Origin: Candidatus Binataceae bacterium
GTDB lineage: Bacteria; Desulfobacterota; Binatia; Binatales; Binataceae
Assembly: GCA_963722605.1 (NCBI GenBank)
Contig: CAVRNO010000004.1
Coordinates: 410,335-474,334 of the forward strand
Reading direction: 5' to 3'
Length of the DNA stretch: 64,000 nucleotides
The notes under the pieces were generated by a model. The model was not told where the DNA came from and did not search any database. It saw only the letters and a program-made list of their open reading frames with translations. A program made the translations under genes and the position numbers. How positions within the stretch are numbered: position 1 is the stretch's first letter; each line of letters begins with the position of its first letter. Below, piece after piece: positions 5,066 to 20,569 of the stretch.

Positions 5066-5263
5066 ATGCCGAAAATCAGAACCAGCCGTACCGCCGCCAA
5101 ACGCTTTTCCGTGACCAAGAGCGGCAAGGTCAAGTTCAAACACGCGTATGCCCGCCATATGTTCTCGGCCAAAAGCCCGAAACAGAAGGCGCACTTGCGC
5201 ACCACCGGTATTTTGGGAAAGGCCGACGCCGCAAAAGTCCGCGCGATGATGCCGTACGCTTGA
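5066..5263 (+). CDS. rpmI: 50S ribosomal protein L35
   Basis: MPKIRTSRTAAKRFSVTKSGKVKFKHAYARHMF… 65 aa, classic L35. Confidence 0.95.
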   Translation: MPKIRTSRTAAKRFSVTKSGKVKFKHAYARHMFSAKSPKQKAHLRTTGILGKADAAKVRAMMPYA

Positions 5264-5819: not shown

Positions 5820-6866
5820 ATGAGAGAACAACTCGAAGAAATCAGGCGCCGCGCGATGGCGGAACTCGGCGACGACGCCGCCGAAGCGCAAATCGACGCG
5901 GTTCGGGTGCGCGTGCTCGGCCGCTCGGGCGAGCTTACGGAAATCATGCGCGGGATGCGCGAGGTGCCGGCCGCCGAGCGCCCCGCGCTCGGCCAGCTCA
6001 TCAATCAGATCAAGCGCGAAGTCGAAGCGCGGATCGAGAGCCTGAGCGCGAAACTAAAGGCCGCGGCTCTCGCCCAATCGCTCAGTGAAAAACGGCTCGA
6101 CGTGACCCTGCCCGGCATGCGCATCGCGCGCGGCCGCATCCATCCGATCACCGACATCCTGGAAAAAATGCTGCAAATTTTCGAGTCGATGGGCTTCGAA
6201 GTCGCGATGACCCAGGATATCGAGGACGACTTTCACAACTTCGCCGCGCTCAACTTCACCCCGCATCATCCCGCCCGCGACATGCAGGACACCTTCTACC
6301 TCGAAGGCGGGATGATACTGCGAACCCATACCTCCAACGGCCAGATCCGGGTGATGGAAAAACGCCGGCCTCCCCTGGCGGTCGTTTGTCCGGGGCGATG
6401 CTACCGGCGCGACGACCTGACGGTGCGCAGCTCGCCGATGTTCACCCAGATCGAGGGTTTCATGGTCGATAAGCGCGGGCGCGTCACGATGGCGCATCTC
6501 AAGGGCGTGCTGACCGAATTCGCGCGCGCGTTTTTCGGCACGACCGCGGTCCGGTTTCGCGCCAGCTATTTTCCCTTCACCGAGCCGAGCGCCGAACTCG
6601 ACATGCATTGCCTGCTATGCGACGGCGCGGGATGCCCGGTCTGCAAGCATTCGGGATGGACCGAAGTGCTCGGCTGCGGAATGATCCATCCCAACGTGAT
6701 GCGCGCGGTCGAGTACGATCCCGAGGAATACCAGGGGTTCGCCTTCGGCCTGGGCGTCGAGCGCACCGGCCTGCTCAAGCTCGGGGTTGACGACATGCGG
6801 CTGTTTTTCGAGAACGACCTTCGCTTCTTGAGCCAGTTCCCGGCGCTCAGCGGAGGCGTGCGATGA
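5820..6866 (+). CDS. pheS: phenylalanyl-tRNA synthetase alpha subunit
   Basis: Starts MREQLEEIRRRAMAEL… (ATG 5820, GGGGAAGA RBS) inside the longer ORF 5523..6866. Class II motifs …FTPHHPARDMQDTFY…, …GRCYRRD…, …FPFTEPSAE…GCGMIHPNV…. Confidence 0.92.
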   Translation: MREQLEEIRRRAMAELGDDAAEAQIDAVRVRVLGRSGELTEIMRGMREVPAAERPALGQLINQIKREVEARIESLSAKLKAAALAQSLSEKRLDVTLPGMRIARGRIHPITDILEKMLQIFESMGFEVAMTQDIEDDFHNFAALNFTPHHPARDMQDTFYLEGGMILRTHTSNGQIRVMEKRRPPLAVVCPGRCYRRDDLTVRSSPMFTQIEGFMVDKRGRVTMAHLKGVLTEFARAFFGTTAVRFRASYFPFTEPSAELDMHCLLCDGAGCPVCKHSGWTEVLGCGMIHPNVMRAVEYDPEEYQGFAFGLGVERTGLLKLGVDDMRLFFENDLRFLSQFPALSGGVR

Positions 6867-9292
6867 AGCTCCCGCTCAGTTGGTTGAGGGACTTCGTCAG
6901 CATCGACGCGCCGGTCGAGGAAATCTCGCGCCGGCTCAGTTTCGCGGGATTAGTCGTCGAGAACGTCGAGAAACTCACGCCCGGATTCGCCCGCGTGTAC
7001 GCCGCCCGGGTGCTCCACGTCGAAAAGCATCCCAACGCCGACCGGCTCAGCCTTTGCGAGGTGGACGCCGGCCCAAAAGGCCAATTCAAAGTCGTGTGCG
7101 GCGCGCCCAACGTGAAGGCCGGGATGATGGCGGCGCTCGCTCTGGTTGGCGCGCAACTGGGCAAGCAGCCGCCGCTGGAGGCAGCCGTAATTCGCGGCGT
7201 GCGCTCCGAGGGCATGCTCTGCTCGGGGCGCGAGCTCGGCCTGTCGGATGAACAGGCTGGAATCCTTGCGCTCGGCGCGGATGCGCCGCTGGGCGGGGAC
7301 GTGGCCGCGTATTTGCACCTCGACGACATCGTGCTCGATGTCGAAATCACGCCGAATCGGGGCGATTGCCTGTCGATTCTCGGGCTGGCGCGCGAGATTG
7401 CAGCGTTGTTCGCCGCCAGGCTGCGCGCGCCAAGGCTGCGCGCGGCGCATAGCCCCGTCGCGCCCGGCGGCGAGCACGTTTCGCTTTCGGTTTCGATCGA
7501 AGCGCCCGATCTGTGCCCGCGTTACGCGGCGCTGGCGATGACCGGAATCAAGGTCGGTCCTTCGCCGGCGTGGCTTAAGCGCCGGCTGGAAGTATGCGGG
7601 ATGCGCGCGCTCAACAACGTGGTCGATGCGACCAACTACGTGATGCTCGAACTCGGCCAGCCCTTGCACGCGTTCGACTTCGGCAAAATTGCGGGCGGAG
7701 GGATTGTCGTCCGCCGCGCCGGCGCCACCAGCGAGTTCGTGACGCTGGACAACGTCGCGCGCGCTCTCGATTCAAACGATCTGCTGATCGCCGACAGCGA
7801 CAAGCCGCTGGCAATCGCGGGCGTGATGGGCGGACTCAACTCCGAGGTCGGCGACTCGACCGGGACTATTTTGCTCGAGAGCGCATACTTCGAGCCGATG
7901 ACGATAGCGCGCACCGCGCGCCGCCTGGGCTTGCGCAGCGAGGCAAGTTACCGCTTCGAGCGCGGCGTCGATCGCGCGGGACAGGTCGGCGCGCTGATTC
8001 GCGCGGCCGAATTGATCCGCAAGATCGCCGGCGGACGCGAGGCGTCGCCGATCGCCGACTTCGAGCCGCGCAAGGCCGAGCCGCGCGAGATTGCGCTCGA
8101 CCTGGGCGCGATGGAATCGCTGCTCGGCGCCGCGATACCGCCGGCCGTCGCCCGCAGCCGCCTCAAATCGCTGGGCGCGCAAGTGAGCACCCGCGCCAAG
8201 GGTGTGCTCGCGGTCGTGCCTCCGTCGTACCGCTCCGATCTGGCCGAGCAGGCCGATCTGATCGAGGAAGTCGCGCGCCTGGGCGGCCTCGAGGACATCC
8301 CGGCCCGGCTGCCCGCGCGCGTCAGCTCGCTGGCTCCGGTCAATCGCGAGCGTGATTTCTTGAAGGGCACGCGCGAGGTGATGCTGGGATGCGGGCTGAC
8401 CGAGGCCGCCACCATCGCGTTCATCGGGCCCGCCGACAACGCGCGCTTTCCGGGTATTGAAGCGGCGACGCGGCCGGTCAAGGTGACCAACCCGCTGTCG
8501 GCGGAACTGAGCGAGCTGCGGGTGAGCCTGATGCCGGGGCTGGTCGCCTCGCTCAGGTTCAATTTGAACCGCGAGGCGCGCGCCTTTCACGCGTTTGAAA
8601 TCGGCAAGACCTTTTGCATGCACGGCGACGCCGCGACCGAGCACGATCATCTCGCCGCGGTCAGCTACGGAACGTACGCCGTGTCCGCAATCGGCGAGCA
8701 GAGCGTGGCGGCGGGATTTTTTTCGATCAAGGGAATTCTCGAGACGTACCTGGAAGCGATTGGCATTTCGCCGCGAGTGGCGTACAAAGCTGTCGAGAGC
8801 GGCGAAGCGCCATTTCTTCCATTTCTGCATCCGGGGCGCAGCGCCGTGATCACGCTGGACGGCGCGGCGATCGGTTTGATCGGCGAGTTGCATCCGGCGG
8901 AAGCGATGCGGCTCGATCTGAGCGGTCCCTGCGCGGTGTATGAACTTGACTTGAGTGGGCTCATTGCCTATGGTTTCTCGCCGCGCAAAGCTTTCGAGCC
9001 GCCGCCAAAATATCCCGCGATCAGGCGCGATTTGGCGCTGGTGATGGATCGAAATTTCCCGGCGGATATGGTAGTCAAAGCCATTCGGGAGTGCGGCGCG
9101 TCGCTGCTGGAAAGCGTCGAGGTATTCGACGTGTACGAGGGGACGGCGGTGGCGGCCGGAAAAAAGAGCGTGGCGTTGGCTTGTCGTTACCGTGCAAAAG
9201 ATCGCACGCTGACCGATGAGGAGGTTAACCGCATTCACGCGCTGCTGGTGGAGCAGGCGCGGGTGCGATTAGGGGCTGAGTTGCGGAAGTAA
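6863..9292 (+). CDS. pheT: phenylalanyl-tRNA synthetase beta subunit
   Basis: 809 aa, MKLPLSWLRDFVSIDAPVEEI…, tRNA-binding, B3/4, B5 and FDX-ACB regions; ATGA overlap with pheS. Confidence 0.95.
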   Translation: MKLPLSWLRDFVSIDAPVEEISRRLSFAGLVVENVEKLTPGFARVYAARVLHVEKHPNADRLSLCEVDAGPKGQFKVVCGAPNVKAGMMAALALVGAQLGKQPPLEAAVIRGVRSEGMLCSGRELGLSDEQAGILALGADAPLGGDVAAYLHLDDIVLDVEITPNRGDCLSILGLAREIAALFAARLRAPRLRAAHSPVAPGGEHVSLSVSIEAPDLCPRYAALAMTGIKVGPSPAWLKRRLEVCGMRALNNVVDATNYVMLELGQPLHAFDFGKIAGGGIVVRRAGATSEFVTLDNVARALDSNDLLIADSDKPLAIAGVMGGLNSEVGDSTGTILLESAYFEPMTIARTARRLGLRSEASYRFERGVDRAGQVGALIRAAELIRKIAGGREASPIADFEPRKAEPREIALDLGAMESLLGAAIPPAVARSRLKSLGAQVSTRAKGVLAVVPPSYRSDLAEQADLIEEVARLGGLEDIPARLPARVSSLAPVNRERDFLKGTREVMLGCGLTEAATIAFIGPADNARFPGIEAATRPVKVTNPLSAELSELRVSLMPGLVASLRFNLNREARAFHAFEIGKTFCMHGDAATEHDHLAAVSYGTYAVSAIGEQSVAAGFFSIKGILETYLEAIGISPRVAYKAVESGEAPFLPFLHPGRSAVITLDGAAIGLIGELHPAEAMRLDLSGPCAVYELDLSGLIAYGFSPRKAFEPPPKYPAIRRDLALVMDRNFPADMVVKAIRECGASLLESVEVFDVYEGTAVAAGKKSVALACRYRAKDRTLTDEEVNRIHALLVEQARVRLGAELRK

Positions 9293-10096: not shown

Positions 10097-10125
10097 GCAG
10101 CGCCCTGCGGTCGCCTACTTTTTGT

Positions 10126-10155
10126 GTCATCCCGACCGAAGTGGAGGGACCCCGG
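10126..10155. repeat. left terminal inverted repeat of retron island
   Basis: gtcatcccgaccgaagtggagggaccccgg; 27 of 30 identical to the reverse complement of 12561-12590. Confidence 0.6.
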
Positions 10156-10486
10156 ATCCGGATCTGCGTATGATCCGCGCTGAGATACCTCGCCCGTTAT
10201 TTTCACGGGAGAGGCGGCCGGCCGCCTTGCGGCCGGTAGGTGAGGGTGCAGCCGGCGAATGCTGACTCCCCTCGCGGCGCGATTTTGTGGTGCGGCGCGC
10301 ATTGCGCGCCCGTGACCGACGCGAAACTGGCTTTTCGGGCGATTTCGTGGGAGGCCAACTGTGCCCCCGCGGCGCCGGAAACACCGTGTGAACAAAACCG
10401 GCTTGGCACCTTGCAGAGGCAGGCCGTTGGGTCTGTAGCGGAGCTGGGCATCGGAGAGTCGAAACGGAAGTTCCGGCTTGCTCCAC

Positions 10487-10515
10487 TTGACGCGATACAT
10501 TCCAATTCGTATTCT
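10487..10515 (+). promoter_or_regulatory. sigma-70-type promoter of retron operon
   Basis: TTGACG-17 nt-TATTCT, predicted TSS ~10522 right at the a1 repeat. Confidence 0.45.
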
Positions 10516-10520
10516 CGTCT

Positions 10521-10676
10521 CGCTCTTAGCTGGGTTCCCGTTGACGAAACGCGAGCCTTATGCCGGGCGATTCGCCAGGCTGTTATGTATTGACCGTCAT
10601 GCTGCGGGCGGGTTTCTCACCCCGCCGAGCACGCTCAGCCGGGCTGAGAAACCCGCCGCGCTCAAAGTAAGAGCAA
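10521..10676 (+). ncRNA. candidate retron msr/msd ncRNA
   Basis: Between promoter and effector ATG. 5' cGCTCTTAg (10521-10529) can pair with 3' gTAAGAGCa (10667-10675) as a1/a2. Stem-loop GCCGGGCGattCGCCAGGC at 10562-10580. A 13 bp perfect stem GGCGGGTTTCTCA/TGAGAAACCCGCC (10607-10657) with a structured 25 nt interior, msd-like. Confidence 0.3.
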
Positions 10677-10678
10677 CG

Positions 10679-11269
10679 ATGAGCCACCCGTTCGATCATC
10701 CGGCGCTGTCCAAGCCTTTGGACAGCGCGATCAATGCCTTCAAAACAAAACGGGTTTCCTTACTTCAAGGAGCCAAGCTTATGTTCGTTTGTGGCGGGCC
10801 TACCGACTCGGTCCCGCCTACTGTACGGCAGAAGTTTCTTGATTGGGCGGCCACCAACATGCCTAATTGGAAGATGTTCTTGGCCGAGAAGGCCGCGGAA
10901 GATGCGCTCTCCAACACCAACCCGCCCCCTCTCAGACTCGCCAAATTCGAAGAATTTCTTGGCAGAGTTGCCGACTGTGTGATCGTATTCCCAGAATCGG
11001 TTGGGTCTTTTGCGGAGACGGGCTACTTCTCAGCCAAGCCCAAGGCCCTCGATAATATCTTGATCGTAAACTCCGACTCTGACGCTGGGCAAAGCAATTC
11101 ATTCCTTAACCGTGGGCCGATTGACGAAATCGAGCGAATCCCAACTAATAAGAAACTCGCGTTGGACTTCGCTGCAAACCCGCCAAACTTTTCACTCATA
11201 AAAGCGCGTCTCGAGGGAGTCCTCCCAAACGGAGGACCGGGGTCTCCATGGAGTCCTTCAAAGGTTTAA
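10679..11269 (+). CDS. retron effector, nucleoside 2-deoxyribosyltransferase-like (SLOG/NDT superfamily) protein
   Basis: 196 aa from MSHPFDH… inside ORF 10478..11269. …LMFVCGGPTDSV… glycine-rich motif and …VIVFPESVGSFAETGYFSA… matching the DSGTAFEIGYA catalytic-Glu motif of NDT. Sits immediately upstream of a retron RT, as for RcaT in retron Sen2. Confidence 0.6.
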   Translation: MSHPFDHPALSKPLDSAINAFKTKRVSLLQGAKLMFVCGGPTDSVPPTVRQKFLDWAATNMPNWKMFLAEKAAEDALSNTNPPPLRLAKFEEFLGRVADCVIVFPESVGSFAETGYFSAKPKALDNILIVNSDSDAGQSNSFLNRGPIDEIERIPTNKKLALDFAANPPNFSLIKARLEGVLPNGGPGSPWSPSKV

Positions 11270-11336
11270 GGGGCGTCGAGCAATTGGCGTTTTTGCTTTA
11301 CCTCTTCGGTTATTCCCGTCCCTCGACCTGGAAGGT

Positions 11337-12532
11337 ATGAAGCGAATTTTTCAGTCGGTATTTGGCACAGGAGGCTGGGATATTAAACGCGTGAGCCACC
11401 TCTTGTCCATCCTCGTCTCGGCGAAATACGTCGACCATCTGGCAGCCGATAACGACTATTATCATTTATCGGACCGCGCCGTCTCCACCATCGTTGATAG
11501 AGATCGTAGGCATAAACCCAGTCAACTGCTAATCCAACATCTCGATATTTATTCACGATATTTCCGACTTTGGTGCCTGCATAAAGAACTGCTGATGTTA
11601 GCTAACGTCCTAGCCGGAAAGACTGGTGTAACTGCTTTGTATATAGAGCAGCTAGCACGCTCGGCTAGTCATTTTTATAAGGTCTATACTATTGATAAGC
11701 GTAATGGTGACAGAAAAGGATCATCCAGCAGCCTTCGCGCGCACTCAAATTTCTCCAGCGCTGGATTGTCGCCAATGTTATACAAGATATTCCGATCCAT
11801 ACCGCCGCGGCGGCGTACGTAAAGGGCAGCAGCATTAGGCTGCATGCTGAGCGGCATGTTGCGAACAACTACCTTTTGAGGTTGGATTTTCAGCGGTTTT
11901 TCCCTTCGATTAAGGTGATCGACATAAGACGACATCTCGTTAAAAATCGGCCGTAGCTTCACTTTGTCGAGGACAGCGATATTGAGCTACTGGTCGCCGC
12001 AGTTACTCGCAGCGGTGGGCTAGTGATCGGCGCACCATCGTCGCCTGCCTTGTCGAATCAGATTATGTTTCAATTTGACGATCTCTTACACCGATGGTGT
12101 GCTGACTCAAACGTGACGTATTCGAGGTATGCTGACGATTTATATTTCTCCACTCGCATGCCTGGCGTCTTGGACGGTGCTCGCGAAAAGGTCGTGGAGC
12201 TTTTGAATTCAATAGACTACCCGCGGCTCCGCTTAAACGACGATAAAACGGTTCACACCTCACGGAAGAAGAAGCGGCTGGTCACAGGGTTGTCGCTTTC
12301 CTCTGACGGAAAGGTTTCATTGGGAAGAGAGAAGAAGCGCGAGATACGAAGCAGGATACATAAGCATGTCGTCGCAGGCTTGGAATCGGAAAAGCGGGCT
12401 TATTTGGCTGGCTACCTCGCATATGCGCGCTCCGTGGAACCACAGTTTATCGCTAGCTTGGACGGAAATACGGTCCAGAGACCGATGCGGGCTGTGATGA
12501 AGATGTCCCAGCCTCCAAGGTCTGGGCACTAG
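11337..12532 (+). pseudogene. retron-type reverse transcriptase, disrupted (frameshift at A4 run 11714-11717 plus in-frame TAG 11954-11956)
   Basis: Three collinear pieces align with Ec86/Ec67-class retron RTs. Frame 0 reaches …YKVYTIDKRNGD. Frame 2 carries KRIIQQPSRALKFLQRWIVANVI…GSSIRLHAERHVANNYLLRLDFQRFFPSI… up to the TAG. After the TAG comes …ELLVAAVTRSGGLVIGAPSSPALSNQIM…VTYSRYADDLYFS…NDDKTVHTSRKKKRLVTGLSLS…LGREKKREIRSRIHKH. One extra A in agaaaagga restores GDRKRIIQQPSRAL. A likelier true start is M at 11595 (MLANVLAGK…). Confidence 0.8.
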
Positions 12533-14897
12533 TAAAGCGCCCGACCTTTCGGGCGAGTACCCGGGGGCGCTCCGCTTCGGTCGGGATGACAAAGGAACGA
12601 GCGACGCAAAGAAAAAGATCCGGGATTCTTCGCTTCGCTCTAGAATGACACGGGCGCGGCGCATCGGGCGACGCAAAGAAGAAGACTGAAGAAACTAGTC
12701 GGAGAGGCGGTCTTGCGAAGCCAATTGGGCGGGGGCGGGGTTGCGGGCGGCGGCGGTATCTTTTGCGACGGAAGGCTGGGCGTATCAGAACGCCTAGCGG
12801 GGCTAGATTTAGTTCGGTTGCGCAATGCTCGGTGGCGCGATGGGCGGTGCGGCCGGCTTCTATCATTTCGGATGCTATGCATACCGCGCCGGCTATCGTG
12901 AGCGCGCCCAGGCCAAGCGCTATCTCGGGCAATCCCGCTATCGCGGCGAATCCCGCGCTTAGCGTGCCCGCCGCCAGAGCTATCTTGGTCATTCGAGTGG
13001 ATTTGATCCGCACCAGCACGCGGTTGGTGACTTTGCCCGCCTCGTGCTCTTCGTCGGCGGTCTTGAGTTCGATTCGGGTCCACGGATTGAGCCGTAGTTC
13101 GAGGTCGTAGTCGTTCCATCCGGGATCGACGATCGGGCCGTAGCCGCTGCGCGCGAACAGCTTGAGCATCCTGTCGATCAGGCGGTCGCGGGTGATGCTT
13201 TCGTTGTTCCAATAGTCCAGCCGGATGGTGCGCCTTAGCCAGTGGATGGTTGGGCGTTGGCGCACGCCGCTTTCGCCGGCGAGTGCGGTCAGGGCTTTCG
13301 CCCGCGTTTTGTAGCGCGTCATCGTTCGCACCATCGGGCCCGTGTAAGCAAGATACGCGATCAGAAGCCGCGCGGTGAGACTTTCGTGAGATTTTTCGAG
13401 CGGCGCATGCCACGCATAGTAGAGCGCCCAAATCGGCCCTAACGCGAGCATCGCAGCCGCGGGAACGATCGAGACGCCGAGTACGATCGACGCGGCGATC
13501 GCGATTGCGGAGAGCATCGTCCATTCGAGCGTCTGCGGGAGAACCATCGCCAGGGTAAGTCCGGGATCGGAAAGCGTCTGCGCGCCGGCGGTCGCGTTTT
13601 TCCACATCACGCGCATCCTGCTCCCGCCGGGAATGGTGCGCGCCAGGCCGGGAATCACCCCGCGCCACGCGATTTGGCCGAGCAGGTTGAAGCGCTCGGG
13701 ATATTTCGGAAAGAGCATCGCCTCGGCGCGTCCGTAGCCGCGCTGCTGTCCGTAGTAAGCCTTGATCGTGTTGCGGCGGAAGTGCCAGACGAAGGCGGCC
13801 GGCGAAAAACCGAGCTTGAAGCCGGCGTCGAGCATCCGCCAGCAGATGTCAACGTCGTCGCCGGCGGCGGTGAACTGCGGATCGAAGCCGCCGATTTTTG
13901 CGAGCGCCGCCTTGGCGAAGAGCATGTTGCATCCCGCCAGATGCTCGGCGCGATCGTCGGCGACCAGCACGTGGCACGGGGCGCCGGGCGAAGCGGCGCA
14001 ACTGGCTTCGATCCATCCGTCTTCGTGCGGCGCGTAGTTGGGACCGCCGCATCCGTCGAAGTTGTTTTCGACCATCGAGCGGACCGCCAGCGTCAGCCAA
14101 TGCGGATCGACGACGCAATCGGAATCGGTGTAGGCGATAATTTCGCCGCGCGCCGCCTGCATCCCGACGTTGCGCGCAACGGCGAGGCCCTTGTTGGGCT
14201 GGCGAATGAGGCGGAACTCGGGAAAATCCGTGGAGATGAGAGCGGTGCGATCGCGCGAGCCGTCATCGACGATGATGACCTCGAAATTGGGGTAGTCGAG
14301 GCGGCGCAGCGACTCGAGGCAATCGCGCATGGTGCGCTCGGCGTTGTAGGCGCAAATGACGACGGAGACCATCGGCATCCTGGGCGGCCGCGGCGGGCAG
14401 GTGCCGTTGAGGGTGACGAAGGGCATCAGCTCCGACGCGCGCATCATGCGCACGCCAAGCCAGTCGTGAGAAACCGGAGCAGGAACGGGCGGAGCAACCA
14501 CGCCAGCCGCACCCGTGCCAAACGCCACTGCGACCGCTTCGTCCTGCCCCGGCGATGCATGTTTGAATTCGATCACCACCGGCCGCGCTTCGGCGAGGTT
14601 GTGCAAGGCGACGACGAAGTCTCGAATCTGGACCGGCTCGAGCGCGGGAATTTCGGCGTAAAGAAAATCCTGTTCCAGGATTGAAAGGGCGCGGGTTTCC
14701 GGCCGGACCTTTATTCCGACAATCGCGCCGGGGGCGTATTCCTTGATCGTGTTGACGACGGCGCGCATCCGCCGCCGCGCGTTTTCGAGTCCGCCCGCGC
14801 GCAGCGCGTCCTGGCCGATCTCGCAATCGAGGATGTAACCGGCGAGCGCAGGATGCCTTCCAAAAATGTTTGCAGTATGCGCGATTCGCGAGAGCAC
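12453..14897 (-). CDS. membrane GT2-family glycosyltransferase (polysaccharide synthase-like), 3' end chimeric with island sequence
   Basis: …MPMVSVVICAYNAERTMRDCLESLRRLDYPNFEVIIVDDGSRDRT…DSDCVV…QQRGYGRAE… GT-A fold with D, DxD and Q(R/Q)xRW-like motifs, then multiple TM helices. The last ~80 codons (12453-12700) are read from low-GC island DNA antisense to the RT. The N-terminal ~185 aa before MPMVSVV is of unclear status. Confidence 0.7.
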   Translation of the reverse strand: MLSRIAHTANIFGRHPALAGYILDCEIGQDALRAGGLENARRRMRAVVNTIKEYAPGAIVGIKVRPETRALSILEQDFLYAEIPALEPVQIRDFVVALHNLAEARPVVIEFKHASPGQDEAVAVAFGTGAAGVVAPPVPAPVSHDWLGVRMMRASELMPFVTLNGTCPPRPPRMPMVSVVICAYNAERTMRDCLESLRRLDYPNFEVIIVDDGSRDRTALISTDFPEFRLIRQPNKGLAVARNVGMQAARGEIIAYTDSDCVVDPHWLTLAVRSMVENNFDGCGGPNYAPHEDGWIEASCAASPGAPCHVLVADDRAEHLAGCNMLFAKAALAKIGGFDPQFTAAGDDVDICWRMLDAGFKLGFSPAAFVWHFRRNTIKAYYGQQRGYGRAEAMLFPKYPERFNLLGQIAWRGVIPGLARTIPGGSRMRVMWKNATAGAQTLSDPGLTLAMVLPQTLEWTMLSAIAIAASIVLGVSIVPAAAMLALGPIWALYYAWHAPLEKSHESLTARLLIAYLAYTGPMVRTMTRYKTRAKALTALAGESGVRQRPTIHWLRRTIRLDYWNNESITRDRLIDRMLKLFARSGYGPIVDPGWNDYDLELRLNPWTRIELKTADEEHEAGKVTNRVLVRIKSTRMTKIALAAGTLSAGFAAIAGLPEIALGLGALTIAGAVCIASEMIEAGRTAHRATEHCATELNLAPLGVLIRPAFRRKRYRRRPQPRPRPIGFARPPLRLVSSVFFFASPDAPRPCHSRAKRRIPDLFLCVARSFVIPTEAERPRVLARKVGRFTSAQTLEAGTSSSQPASVSGPYFRPS
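12561..12590. repeat. right terminal inverted repeat of retron island
   Basis: ccgggggcgctccgcttcggtcgggatgac; reverse complement is gtcatcccgaccgaagcggagcgcccccgg. Confidence 0.6.
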
Positions 14898-19627: not shown

Positions 19628-20041
19628 ATGGCGGAGAGCTTGAGAACCAACATTCGATCGAGACTGTGGACTTGGACCGCGTCGGCGATACCGGCGGTTG
19701 CGGCGCTGGCGTTGATCTCAACCGTCGCTCGCGCAGCCGATCTGACGTCCGCGGCGAGCAGTTACAAAGATACGTGCGCGAAGTGTCACGGCGACCTCGG
19801 CAAGGGCGACGGCCCCAAGGCGAAGGAACTGAAAGACAAGGAAGGCAAACCGGTCGCGATCGGAGATTTGAGCGATTGCGCCAAGATGGCCAAGGTCACC
19901 GACGACGACATGTTCAAGGAGCTGAAGGAAGGCGGCGCGTCGGTAGGCAAGAGCAAGTTCATGACCCCGTACGGCGACGCGATGGAGGACGACGAAATCA
20001 AGGCGATGGTCGCGTACGTCAGGACTTTGTGCAAGAAGTAG
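19628..20041 (+). CDS. periplasmic monoheme class I cytochrome c (paralog 1)
   Basis: Signal peptide …AVAALALISTVARAAD, single CAKCHG motif, 137 aa; GGAG RBS. Confidence 0.85.
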   Translation: MAESLRTNIRSRLWTWTASAIPAVAALALISTVARAADLTSAASSYKDTCAKCHGDLGKGDGPKAKELKDKEGKPVAIGDLSDCAKMAKVTDDDMFKELKEGGASVGKSKFMTPYGDAMEDDEIKAMVAYVRTLCKK

Positions 20042-20155
20042 CGGCGCGCGACAGGCTCTGAGCAGCGGTGGGCGGTTGAACGCGCGCTTTTGCCAACGGC
20101 AGGCACCCCAGATGGAAACGGCAAGCTGGACGTTAAGCAAGATGGAGGAGAAGCC

Positions 20156-20569
20156 ATGTCGAAGAGTTTGAGAACCGGGATTCGATCGAGGCTGTTGGTT
20201 TGGACCGCATCGGCGATACCGGCGGTTGCGGCGCTGGCGCTGATCTCAACTGTCGCTCGCGCGGCCGATATGACGTCTGCGGCGAGCAGTTACAAAGATA
20301 CGTGCGCGAAGTGTCACGGCGATCTCGGCAAGGGCGACGGCCCCAAGGCGAAGGACCTGAAAGACAAGGATGGCAAGGTCGTTGCCTGCGGAGATTTGAC
20401 CGATTGCGCCAAGATGGCCAAGGTCACCGACGACGACATGTTCAAGGAGTTGAAGGAAGGCGGCGCGTCGGTGGGCAAGACCAAGTTCATGACCCCGTAT
20501 GGCGACGCGATGGAGGACGACGAGATCAAGGCGATGGTCGCGTACGTCAGGACCTTGTGCAAGAAATAG
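20156..20569 (+). CDS. periplasmic monoheme class I cytochrome c (paralog 2, tandem duplicate)
   Basis: Starts MSKSLRTGIRSRL… (ATG 20156, GGAGGAG RBS). Near-identical to paralog 1 at protein and DNA level, including the 3' flank tagcggcgcgcg; 528 bp repeat unit. Confidence 0.85.
   Translation: MSKSLRTGIRSRLLVWTASAIPAVAALALISTVARAADMTSAASSYKDTCAKCHGDLGKGDGPKAKDLKDKDGKVVACGDLTDCAKMAKVTDDDMFKELKEGGASVGKTKFMTPYGDAMEDDEIKAMVAYVRTLCKK

Follow-up and report, generated by a model that had tools for sequence, protein, structure and literature searches.

The window analysed here, a 64-kb stretch of DNA, carries a retron cassette on the + strand (10365..12590), the limits of which were set by blastn homology to the intact retrons L005/L002 and L001 (L005 comes from Candidatus Binatus soli UBA7539, the metagenome locus L002 has an identical sequence, and the nearest retron relative of the window genome is from Candidatus Binatus soli). 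Identity over ~10553-12473 is 81-84% to L005/L002 and 72% to L001; blastn detected no homology to these loci outside 10365-12590, and the flanking genes differ between the window, L005/L002 and L001 genomes. Because homology ends at 10365 and 12590 and the flanks differ, the ~2.2-kb cassette is evidently set in different genomic contexts. The GC content of this island is 49-54% versus 62-67% in the flanks, with pheT (6863-9292) and genes resembling ihfA and merR lying upstream and an 814-aa open reading frame (ORF; 12453-14897) lying downstream on the opposite strand. A repeat search found that the island is bracketed by a 31-nt inverted repeat, TGTCATCCCGACCGAAGTGGAGGGACCCCGG, whose arms (10125..10155 and 12561..12591) are 90% complementary and which occurs in these two copies and no others in the window (0.05 expected). 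The right arm has a similar sequence after the reverse transcriptase (RT) gene in L005, whereas the left arm lies outside the retron-homologous stretch and has no counterpart in L005 or L001. We therefore rejected the repeat as transposon ends or as the border of a defined mobile element, and it may instead be an element of REP/MITE type or have been left behind when the cassette inserted. Elsewhere in the window, a lower-GC stretch holds two tandem, near-identical small c-type cytochrome genes (19628-20041 and 20090-20569; 137 and 159 aa, with CAKCH motif).

The cassette begins with a sigma-70-type promoter-like site (TTGACG-17 nt-TATTCT; 10487..10515, + strand) that was found by consensus scan and is conserved in L005/L002, its function being putative. 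Just 3' of it lies a predicted retron ncRNA (msr-msd; 10522..10674, + strand), identified by an inverted repeat and by the consensus fold of three homologs: the a1 and a2 arms, GCTCTTA (10522-10528) and TAAGAGC (10668-10674), pair with each other, a candidate branching G at 10529 is followed by msr stem-loops, and a long msd hairpin is formed by arms at 10607-10624 and 10640-10657. Across the three homologs the 7-bp a1/a2 stem is invariant and the msd hairpin shows four compensatory pairs (fold z-score -4.0). As the Rfam msr match (RF00170 at 10536-10598; 24 bits, E 0.59) falls below the gathering score of 52, the ncRNA call is based on the consensus fold. A putative msr-msd with a1/a2 repeats and an msd hairpin upstream of an effector gene is the arrangement of a type II-A retron.

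The ncRNA is followed by an ORF of 196 codons on the + strand (10679..11269), running from ATG 10679 to TAA 11267-11269, which an earlier note had taken for an intact, stand-alone NDT/SLOG-like retron effector, quoting two motifs. Both motifs are indeed present (MFVCGGPTD and FPESVGSFAETGYFSA), and profile, fold and alignment together show that the ORF encodes the N-terminal NDT-like domain of an St85/Ec86-family effector, after which come a stretch of 15 codons in the wrong frame and a stop. ATG 10679 is the same start as that of the conserved M-x-HPFDHP of intact homologs; a TTG at 10478 would mechanically give a longer, 263-aa version, but intact homologs begin at the equivalent of 10679. 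The PADLOC profile NDT_II-A matches the ORF with an E-value of 4e-33 over profile positions 3-134 of 279 only, and the NCBIfam model NF038232 ('retron St85 family effector protein') matches it at 105.4 bits (E 4e-30), above the curated cutoff of 100 bits, over positions 9-140 of 277, whereas the intact homolog P0003 spans positions 4-247. PF28093 (STM3845) is a precomputed domain of the window product and of its homologs, while our Pfam-A search returned no match for either the ORF or intact homologs, the copy searched seemingly being without PF28093.

Structure comparison supports the same assignment. The AF2 model of the 196-aa product (mean pLDDT 82.5) is confident over residues 31-180, with 103 of the 196 residues above 90, and its best Foldseek matches are chains of the Eco1 (Ec86) effector (E 4e-8 to 7e-8, TM 0.63 normalised to the query), a protein represented by PDB entries 7v9x, 7xjg, 8qbk, 8qbl and 8qbm and to which the structure-based identity is only ~20%. 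Next come CMP N-glycosidases, DNPH1 and nucleoside 2'-deoxyribosyltransferases (E 0.02-0.1); NDT, DNPH1 and the CMP N-glycosidases MilB/BcmB share a Rossmann-like fold (Foldseek probabilities 0.9-0.99) and the acidic nucleophile motif with the window product, but they are remote from it, at 12-16% identity and with no Pfam NDT match. Lactobacillus NDT has a different active site from the Ec86 effector (10.1101/2023.08.16.553469). The family profile, built from 41 members, spans both domains of the solved Ec86/Eco1 effector (E 1.6e-30; 7v9x, 7xjg, 8qbk and 8qbm) and ties the window residues to those of Eco1, with E65, S100, E106 and S133 of Eco1 corresponding to E70, S107, E113 and S141 of the window, all of which are present. 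Neither E70 nor E113 varies in the 41-sequence alignment, where conservation of S141 is 90% or more, and all 18 family-invariant residues are kept in the window ORF, including E70, E106, S110 and E113. The glutamate that had been proposed as catalytic was thus correctly chosen: E113 aligns with Eco1 E106, the residue replaced by alanine in PDB entry 8qbl, which fixes the correspondence. The identity of the protein as an NDT-like retron effector is therefore borne out by the NDT_II-A, NF038232 and Ec86/Eco1 profile matches and by the AF2/Foldseek comparison, which places it in a related fold (the Eco1 effector first, then NDT) with the conserved glutamate aligned.

The word 'intact', by contrast, does not hold. 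Alignment of the window DNA with the two intact retrons L001 and L002 shows a 1-nt deletion following 11220, such that only residues 1-181 (10679-11220) are native and the 15 codons that close the ORF, LPNGGPGSPWSPSKV*, belong to a shifted frame. The missing half of the effector is still recognizable downstream (11221..11584, + strand) by tblastn with the intact homologs P0002, P0003 and P0004 and by DNA alignment, as a C-terminal domain remnant that is out of frame with the ORF and corresponds to the predicted DNA-binding domain of the St85/Ec86 family. Residues 197-231 of P0002 match frame mod3=1 at 11200-11304 with 57% identity (for example, SPPKRRTGVSMESFKGLRGVEQLAFLLYL), and its residues 232-317 are found in frame 0 at 11304-11564 with 55% identity (for example, LFPSLDLEGMKRIFQ...LSILVSAKYVDHLAADNDYYH...IYSRYF). 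According to the three-way DNA alignment, 1-nt deletions after 11220, 11309, 11519 and 11560 and a net +1 change at 11469 move the remnant through frame 1 (~11221-11309), frame 0 (11310-11469), frame 1 (11470-11519) and frame 0 (11520-11560) and then into frame 2, the original frame again, where the ancestral effector stop (TAA 11582-11584) is found. Programmed frameshifting was rejected as an explanation, since five shifts would be needed within 340 nt, mostly off slippery runs. As the effector frame is lost after codon 181, translation gives only the NDT-like domain with a 15-residue nonsense tail, and the two-domain, ~300-aa single-polypeptide architecture of the family is absent from the window ORF. 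The statement that the protein lacks a C-terminal extension is accordingly true of the ORF and untrue of the locus, which retains the sequence of that domain at 11221-11584 in other frames.

The RT gene fared no better, as the earlier note had suspected. An St85-family RT pseudogene (11595..12532, + strand; tblastn, PADLOC and NF038233) begins with an ATG at 11595, 10 nt past the ancestral effector stop, the same spacing as in L002. It carries a 1-nt deletion after 11711 that shifts the frame at codon 40, an in-frame TAG (11954-11956) where L002 has a His codon, a compensated -1/+1 pair at 12461/12482 and two in-frame 3-nt deletions (at 11968 and 12367). With the intact L002 RT as tblastn query, frame 0 yields residues 1-41 and frame 2 yields residues 40-314, with 86.5% identity and with the YADD motif kept. 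RT_II-A (PADLOC; 3.6e-60 on the 3' fragment) and NF038233 (retron_St85_RT) are the best matches; the window fragment scores 176 bits against the latter, below the cutoff of 235 bits, compared to 325 bits for the intact L002 RT. Of the eight frameshifting indels in the cassette, the effector gene thus has five and the RT gene three, the latter together with the single in-frame TAG. The window locus is, to judge by its reading frames, a pseudogene of a family member and not an intact member, and the 196-aa ORF is the putative N-terminal remnant of that pseudogene.

A length of 196 aa is also out of keeping with the family. Among homologs retrieved by word index, 40 of 45 are 284-338 aa long, 133 of the 186 collected family proteins measure 280-339 aa, and ~60 of 72 loci in species-representative genomes give 295-312 aa. 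(One candidate member, P0050, with 4769 aa and 29 matched stretches, was rejected as a compositional false positive, being a cadherin-like repeat protein.) Intact relatives have 0-10 nt between effector and RT: in L001 the effector (303 aa) is directly followed by the RT (303 aa), and in L002 the effector (323 aa) and the RT (315 aa) are separated by 10 nt. The reading of the window product as stand-alone and NDT-only is contradicted by the half-length profile matches, the ~300-aa homologs and the missing half that lies downstream out of frame.

Shortened effectors do occur, at roughly a tenth of the loci in representative genomes, yet none of the five relatives of 166-235 aa (L003/L004, L016, L079 and L080) is a natural ~190-aa NDT-only member devoid of C-terminal DNA. 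All five stop at a frameshift or an in-frame stop, and in four of them (L003/L004, L016 and L080) DNA for the C-terminal domain is recognizable downstream. In L003 (38-957) and L004 (39-958) a single frameshift at a poly-A run (FFKKQL*) splits the effector into ORFs of 166 and 111 aa upstream of an intact RT of 307 aa; this sequence is identical in two independent samples, and the split may reflect slippage-prone inactivation of the toxin. The L016 effector is frameshifted near residue 229. L080 (298-1026), which has Asp in place of the catalytic Glu (SFADTG), is interrupted by an in-frame stop at residue 192, after which the C-terminal domain goes on in the same frame, while L079 has an in-frame stop followed by degenerate sequence. 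Such repeated truncation of St85-family effectors (the window, L003/L004, L016, L079 and L080) fits their toxicity.

These observations are best explained by decay of a type II-A retron belonging to the St85 (Sen2)/Ec86 (Eco1) family, the 196-aa product of which is probably an inactive remnant, and the ancestral layout is promoter, msr-msd ncRNA, two-domain effector and RT. The lesions are local, because the other long genes in the 64-kb window are uninterrupted. The substitutions tell less of decay: lineage-specific non-synonymous to synonymous counts for the window versus L002 are 4:12 versus 3:10 in the RT, 7:9 versus 9:6 in the C-terminal domain and 9:7 versus 15:11 in the NDT domain, so that no relaxed constraint is seen on the window branch, with no excess of substitutions or of non-synonymous change relative to L002. 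It follows that the decay is very recent or that some of the indels are not real, which weakens the reading as an old pseudogene and keeps an assembly error in contention. The indel-to-substitution ratio in the cassette (10679-12532 versus L002/L005) is near 1, unusual for a bacterial pseudogene, and likewise suggests that the locus either decayed very recently or is a strain-variable island with local consensus errors. Two compensated pairs make up four of the eight indels, and these could predate inactivation.

If the indels were local consensus errors, for instance in a strain-variable island of a long-read MAG, the true locus would encode a complete effector of ~300 aa and an RT of ~312 aa and so be an ordinary, intact retron of the St85 family. 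Besides the unremarkable substitution pattern, this explanation would account for seven of the eight frameshifting lesions being single-base deletions or insertions and for the frame-repaired RT having all its motifs and its high identity to the intact relative; the source contig, at 937,815 bp, suggests long reads, and another frameshifted effector, that of L016, is in a long-contig MAG. We nevertheless regard it as rather unlikely, given that no other gene in the window appears broken, that most of the indels lie outside homopolymer runs, and that truncated effectors are found in other samples too, one of them identical in two independent samples. Moreover, the TAG at 11954-11956 is two substitutions away from the His codon of L002, atypical of a consensus error. 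Real pseudogenisation is thus favoured by the TAG, with its two substitutions, and by the lack of any other interrupted gene in the window. Whether the cause is decay or artefact, the effector gene is of the ordinary two-domain type and in neither case encodes an NDT-only effector.

How an intact relative of the decayed retron would work is suggested by two known systems. The Sen2 (St85) retron of Salmonella Typhimurium, with the effector RcaT/STM3845, shares the gene order msr-msd, effector, RT with the window, and the window fragment scores above the cutoff of the RcaT family (NF038232, PF28093); unlike in Sen2, the window effector is cut after residue 181 and the RT is broken. RcaT consists of an NDT-like domain and a DNA-binding domain (PMC8632793). 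The Eco1 effector is an N-glycosidase that hydrolyses NAD(P)+ in RT-msDNA filaments after a phage Dcm methylase modifies the msDNA (PMC12673091), and it has a C-terminal domain and an RT-msDNA partner, both of which the window product is without. According to published work on Sen2 and Eco1, the RT of an intact system copies the msd part of the ncRNA into msDNA, and the RT-msDNA complex binds the effector and restrains its N-terminal NDT-like N-glycosidase domain; perturbation of the msDNA by a phage then frees the enzyme, which in Eco1 hydrolyses NAD(P)+, and the infection is aborted. As the RT frame breaks at codon 40 and also carries the TAG, the window locus would presumably make no RT and no msDNA antitoxin.

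The same comparison bears on the activity of the 196-aa product. Among the spontaneous loss-of-toxicity rcaT alleles that arose in antitoxin-lacking strains are E180* (recovered three times), E217*, D296V/Y and a frameshift at nt 697 of the 963-nt gene, D296 being singled out as a key residue (10.1101/2020.06.22.160168). From these Sen2 suppressor alleles it follows that NDT-only truncations of the RcaT archetype are non-toxic at native expression, which speaks against the idea of a minimal NDT-only toxin at the window locus. By analogy, the 196-aa remnant probably has neither toxicity nor function, because truncation of this kind (in RcaT numbering) abolishes RcaT toxicity and because selection would act against an active toxin that lacks its antitoxin.

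We also weighed a proposal close to that of the earlier note, in which the retained retron promoter drives expression of the NDT-only fragment as a working N-glycosidase, either a toxin or a domesticated enzyme. Expression of the fragment is conceivable, since the NDT part retains the catalytic residues and the native start, with the promoter and an apparently intact ncRNA before it. None of the 18 invariant residues, the catalytic Glu among them, has changed, folding of the domain is predicted with confidence, both promoter-like site and ncRNA are conserved, and the first 541 nt of the gene are free of lesions. This lesion-free stretch carries no signal of selection, however: some gap of at least 541 nt is expected among nine randomly placed lesions with P 0.43, which is not significant, and the dead RT gene has a lesion-free gap of 506 nt as well. 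RcaT truncated at E180 or E217 loses toxicity, C-terminal D296 is essential, the five short relatives include no natural NDT-only member, and a toxin unopposed by antitoxin is selected against. We therefore consider a working fragment very improbable, and its more specific form, in which the truncated NDT-like domain made from the conserved promoter acts as an autonomous N-glycosidase/NADase free of RT-msDNA dependence, more improbable still. If it were true, nature would have produced from a retron either a 'minimal' toxin or a domesticated enzyme in the form of this autonomous fragment.

The reading as a stand-alone minimal NDT toxin is thus not supported, and the locus is a pseudogenised, or possibly mis-assembled, retron of a known family. 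Its biological weight is small, as it adds one more decayed copy to a well-characterised retron family, but it carries a caution: an ORF whose catalytic motifs are perfect may still be only what a frameshift has left of a two-domain toxin. Because such a stump can keep perfect motifs, apparently 'minimal' architectures need to be checked against the length of the family and against the downstream reading frames.

Two further observations concern the intact relatives. Compared with the window and L001, the effector of Binatus soli has 66 nt (22 aa) inserted (L002 ~1005-1070; L005 ~5140-5205), and this insertion repeats the adjacent FLDW motif (ERFLDWVAP ... GQFLDWAAT), suggesting a partial tandem duplication in the NDT domain of an otherwise intact gene. 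The genes beside the intact retron of L001 (8031-12912) match SMC/AAA_15-type ATPase, metallophosphatase and OLD-like TOPRIM Pfam families, and this region may be a defence island.
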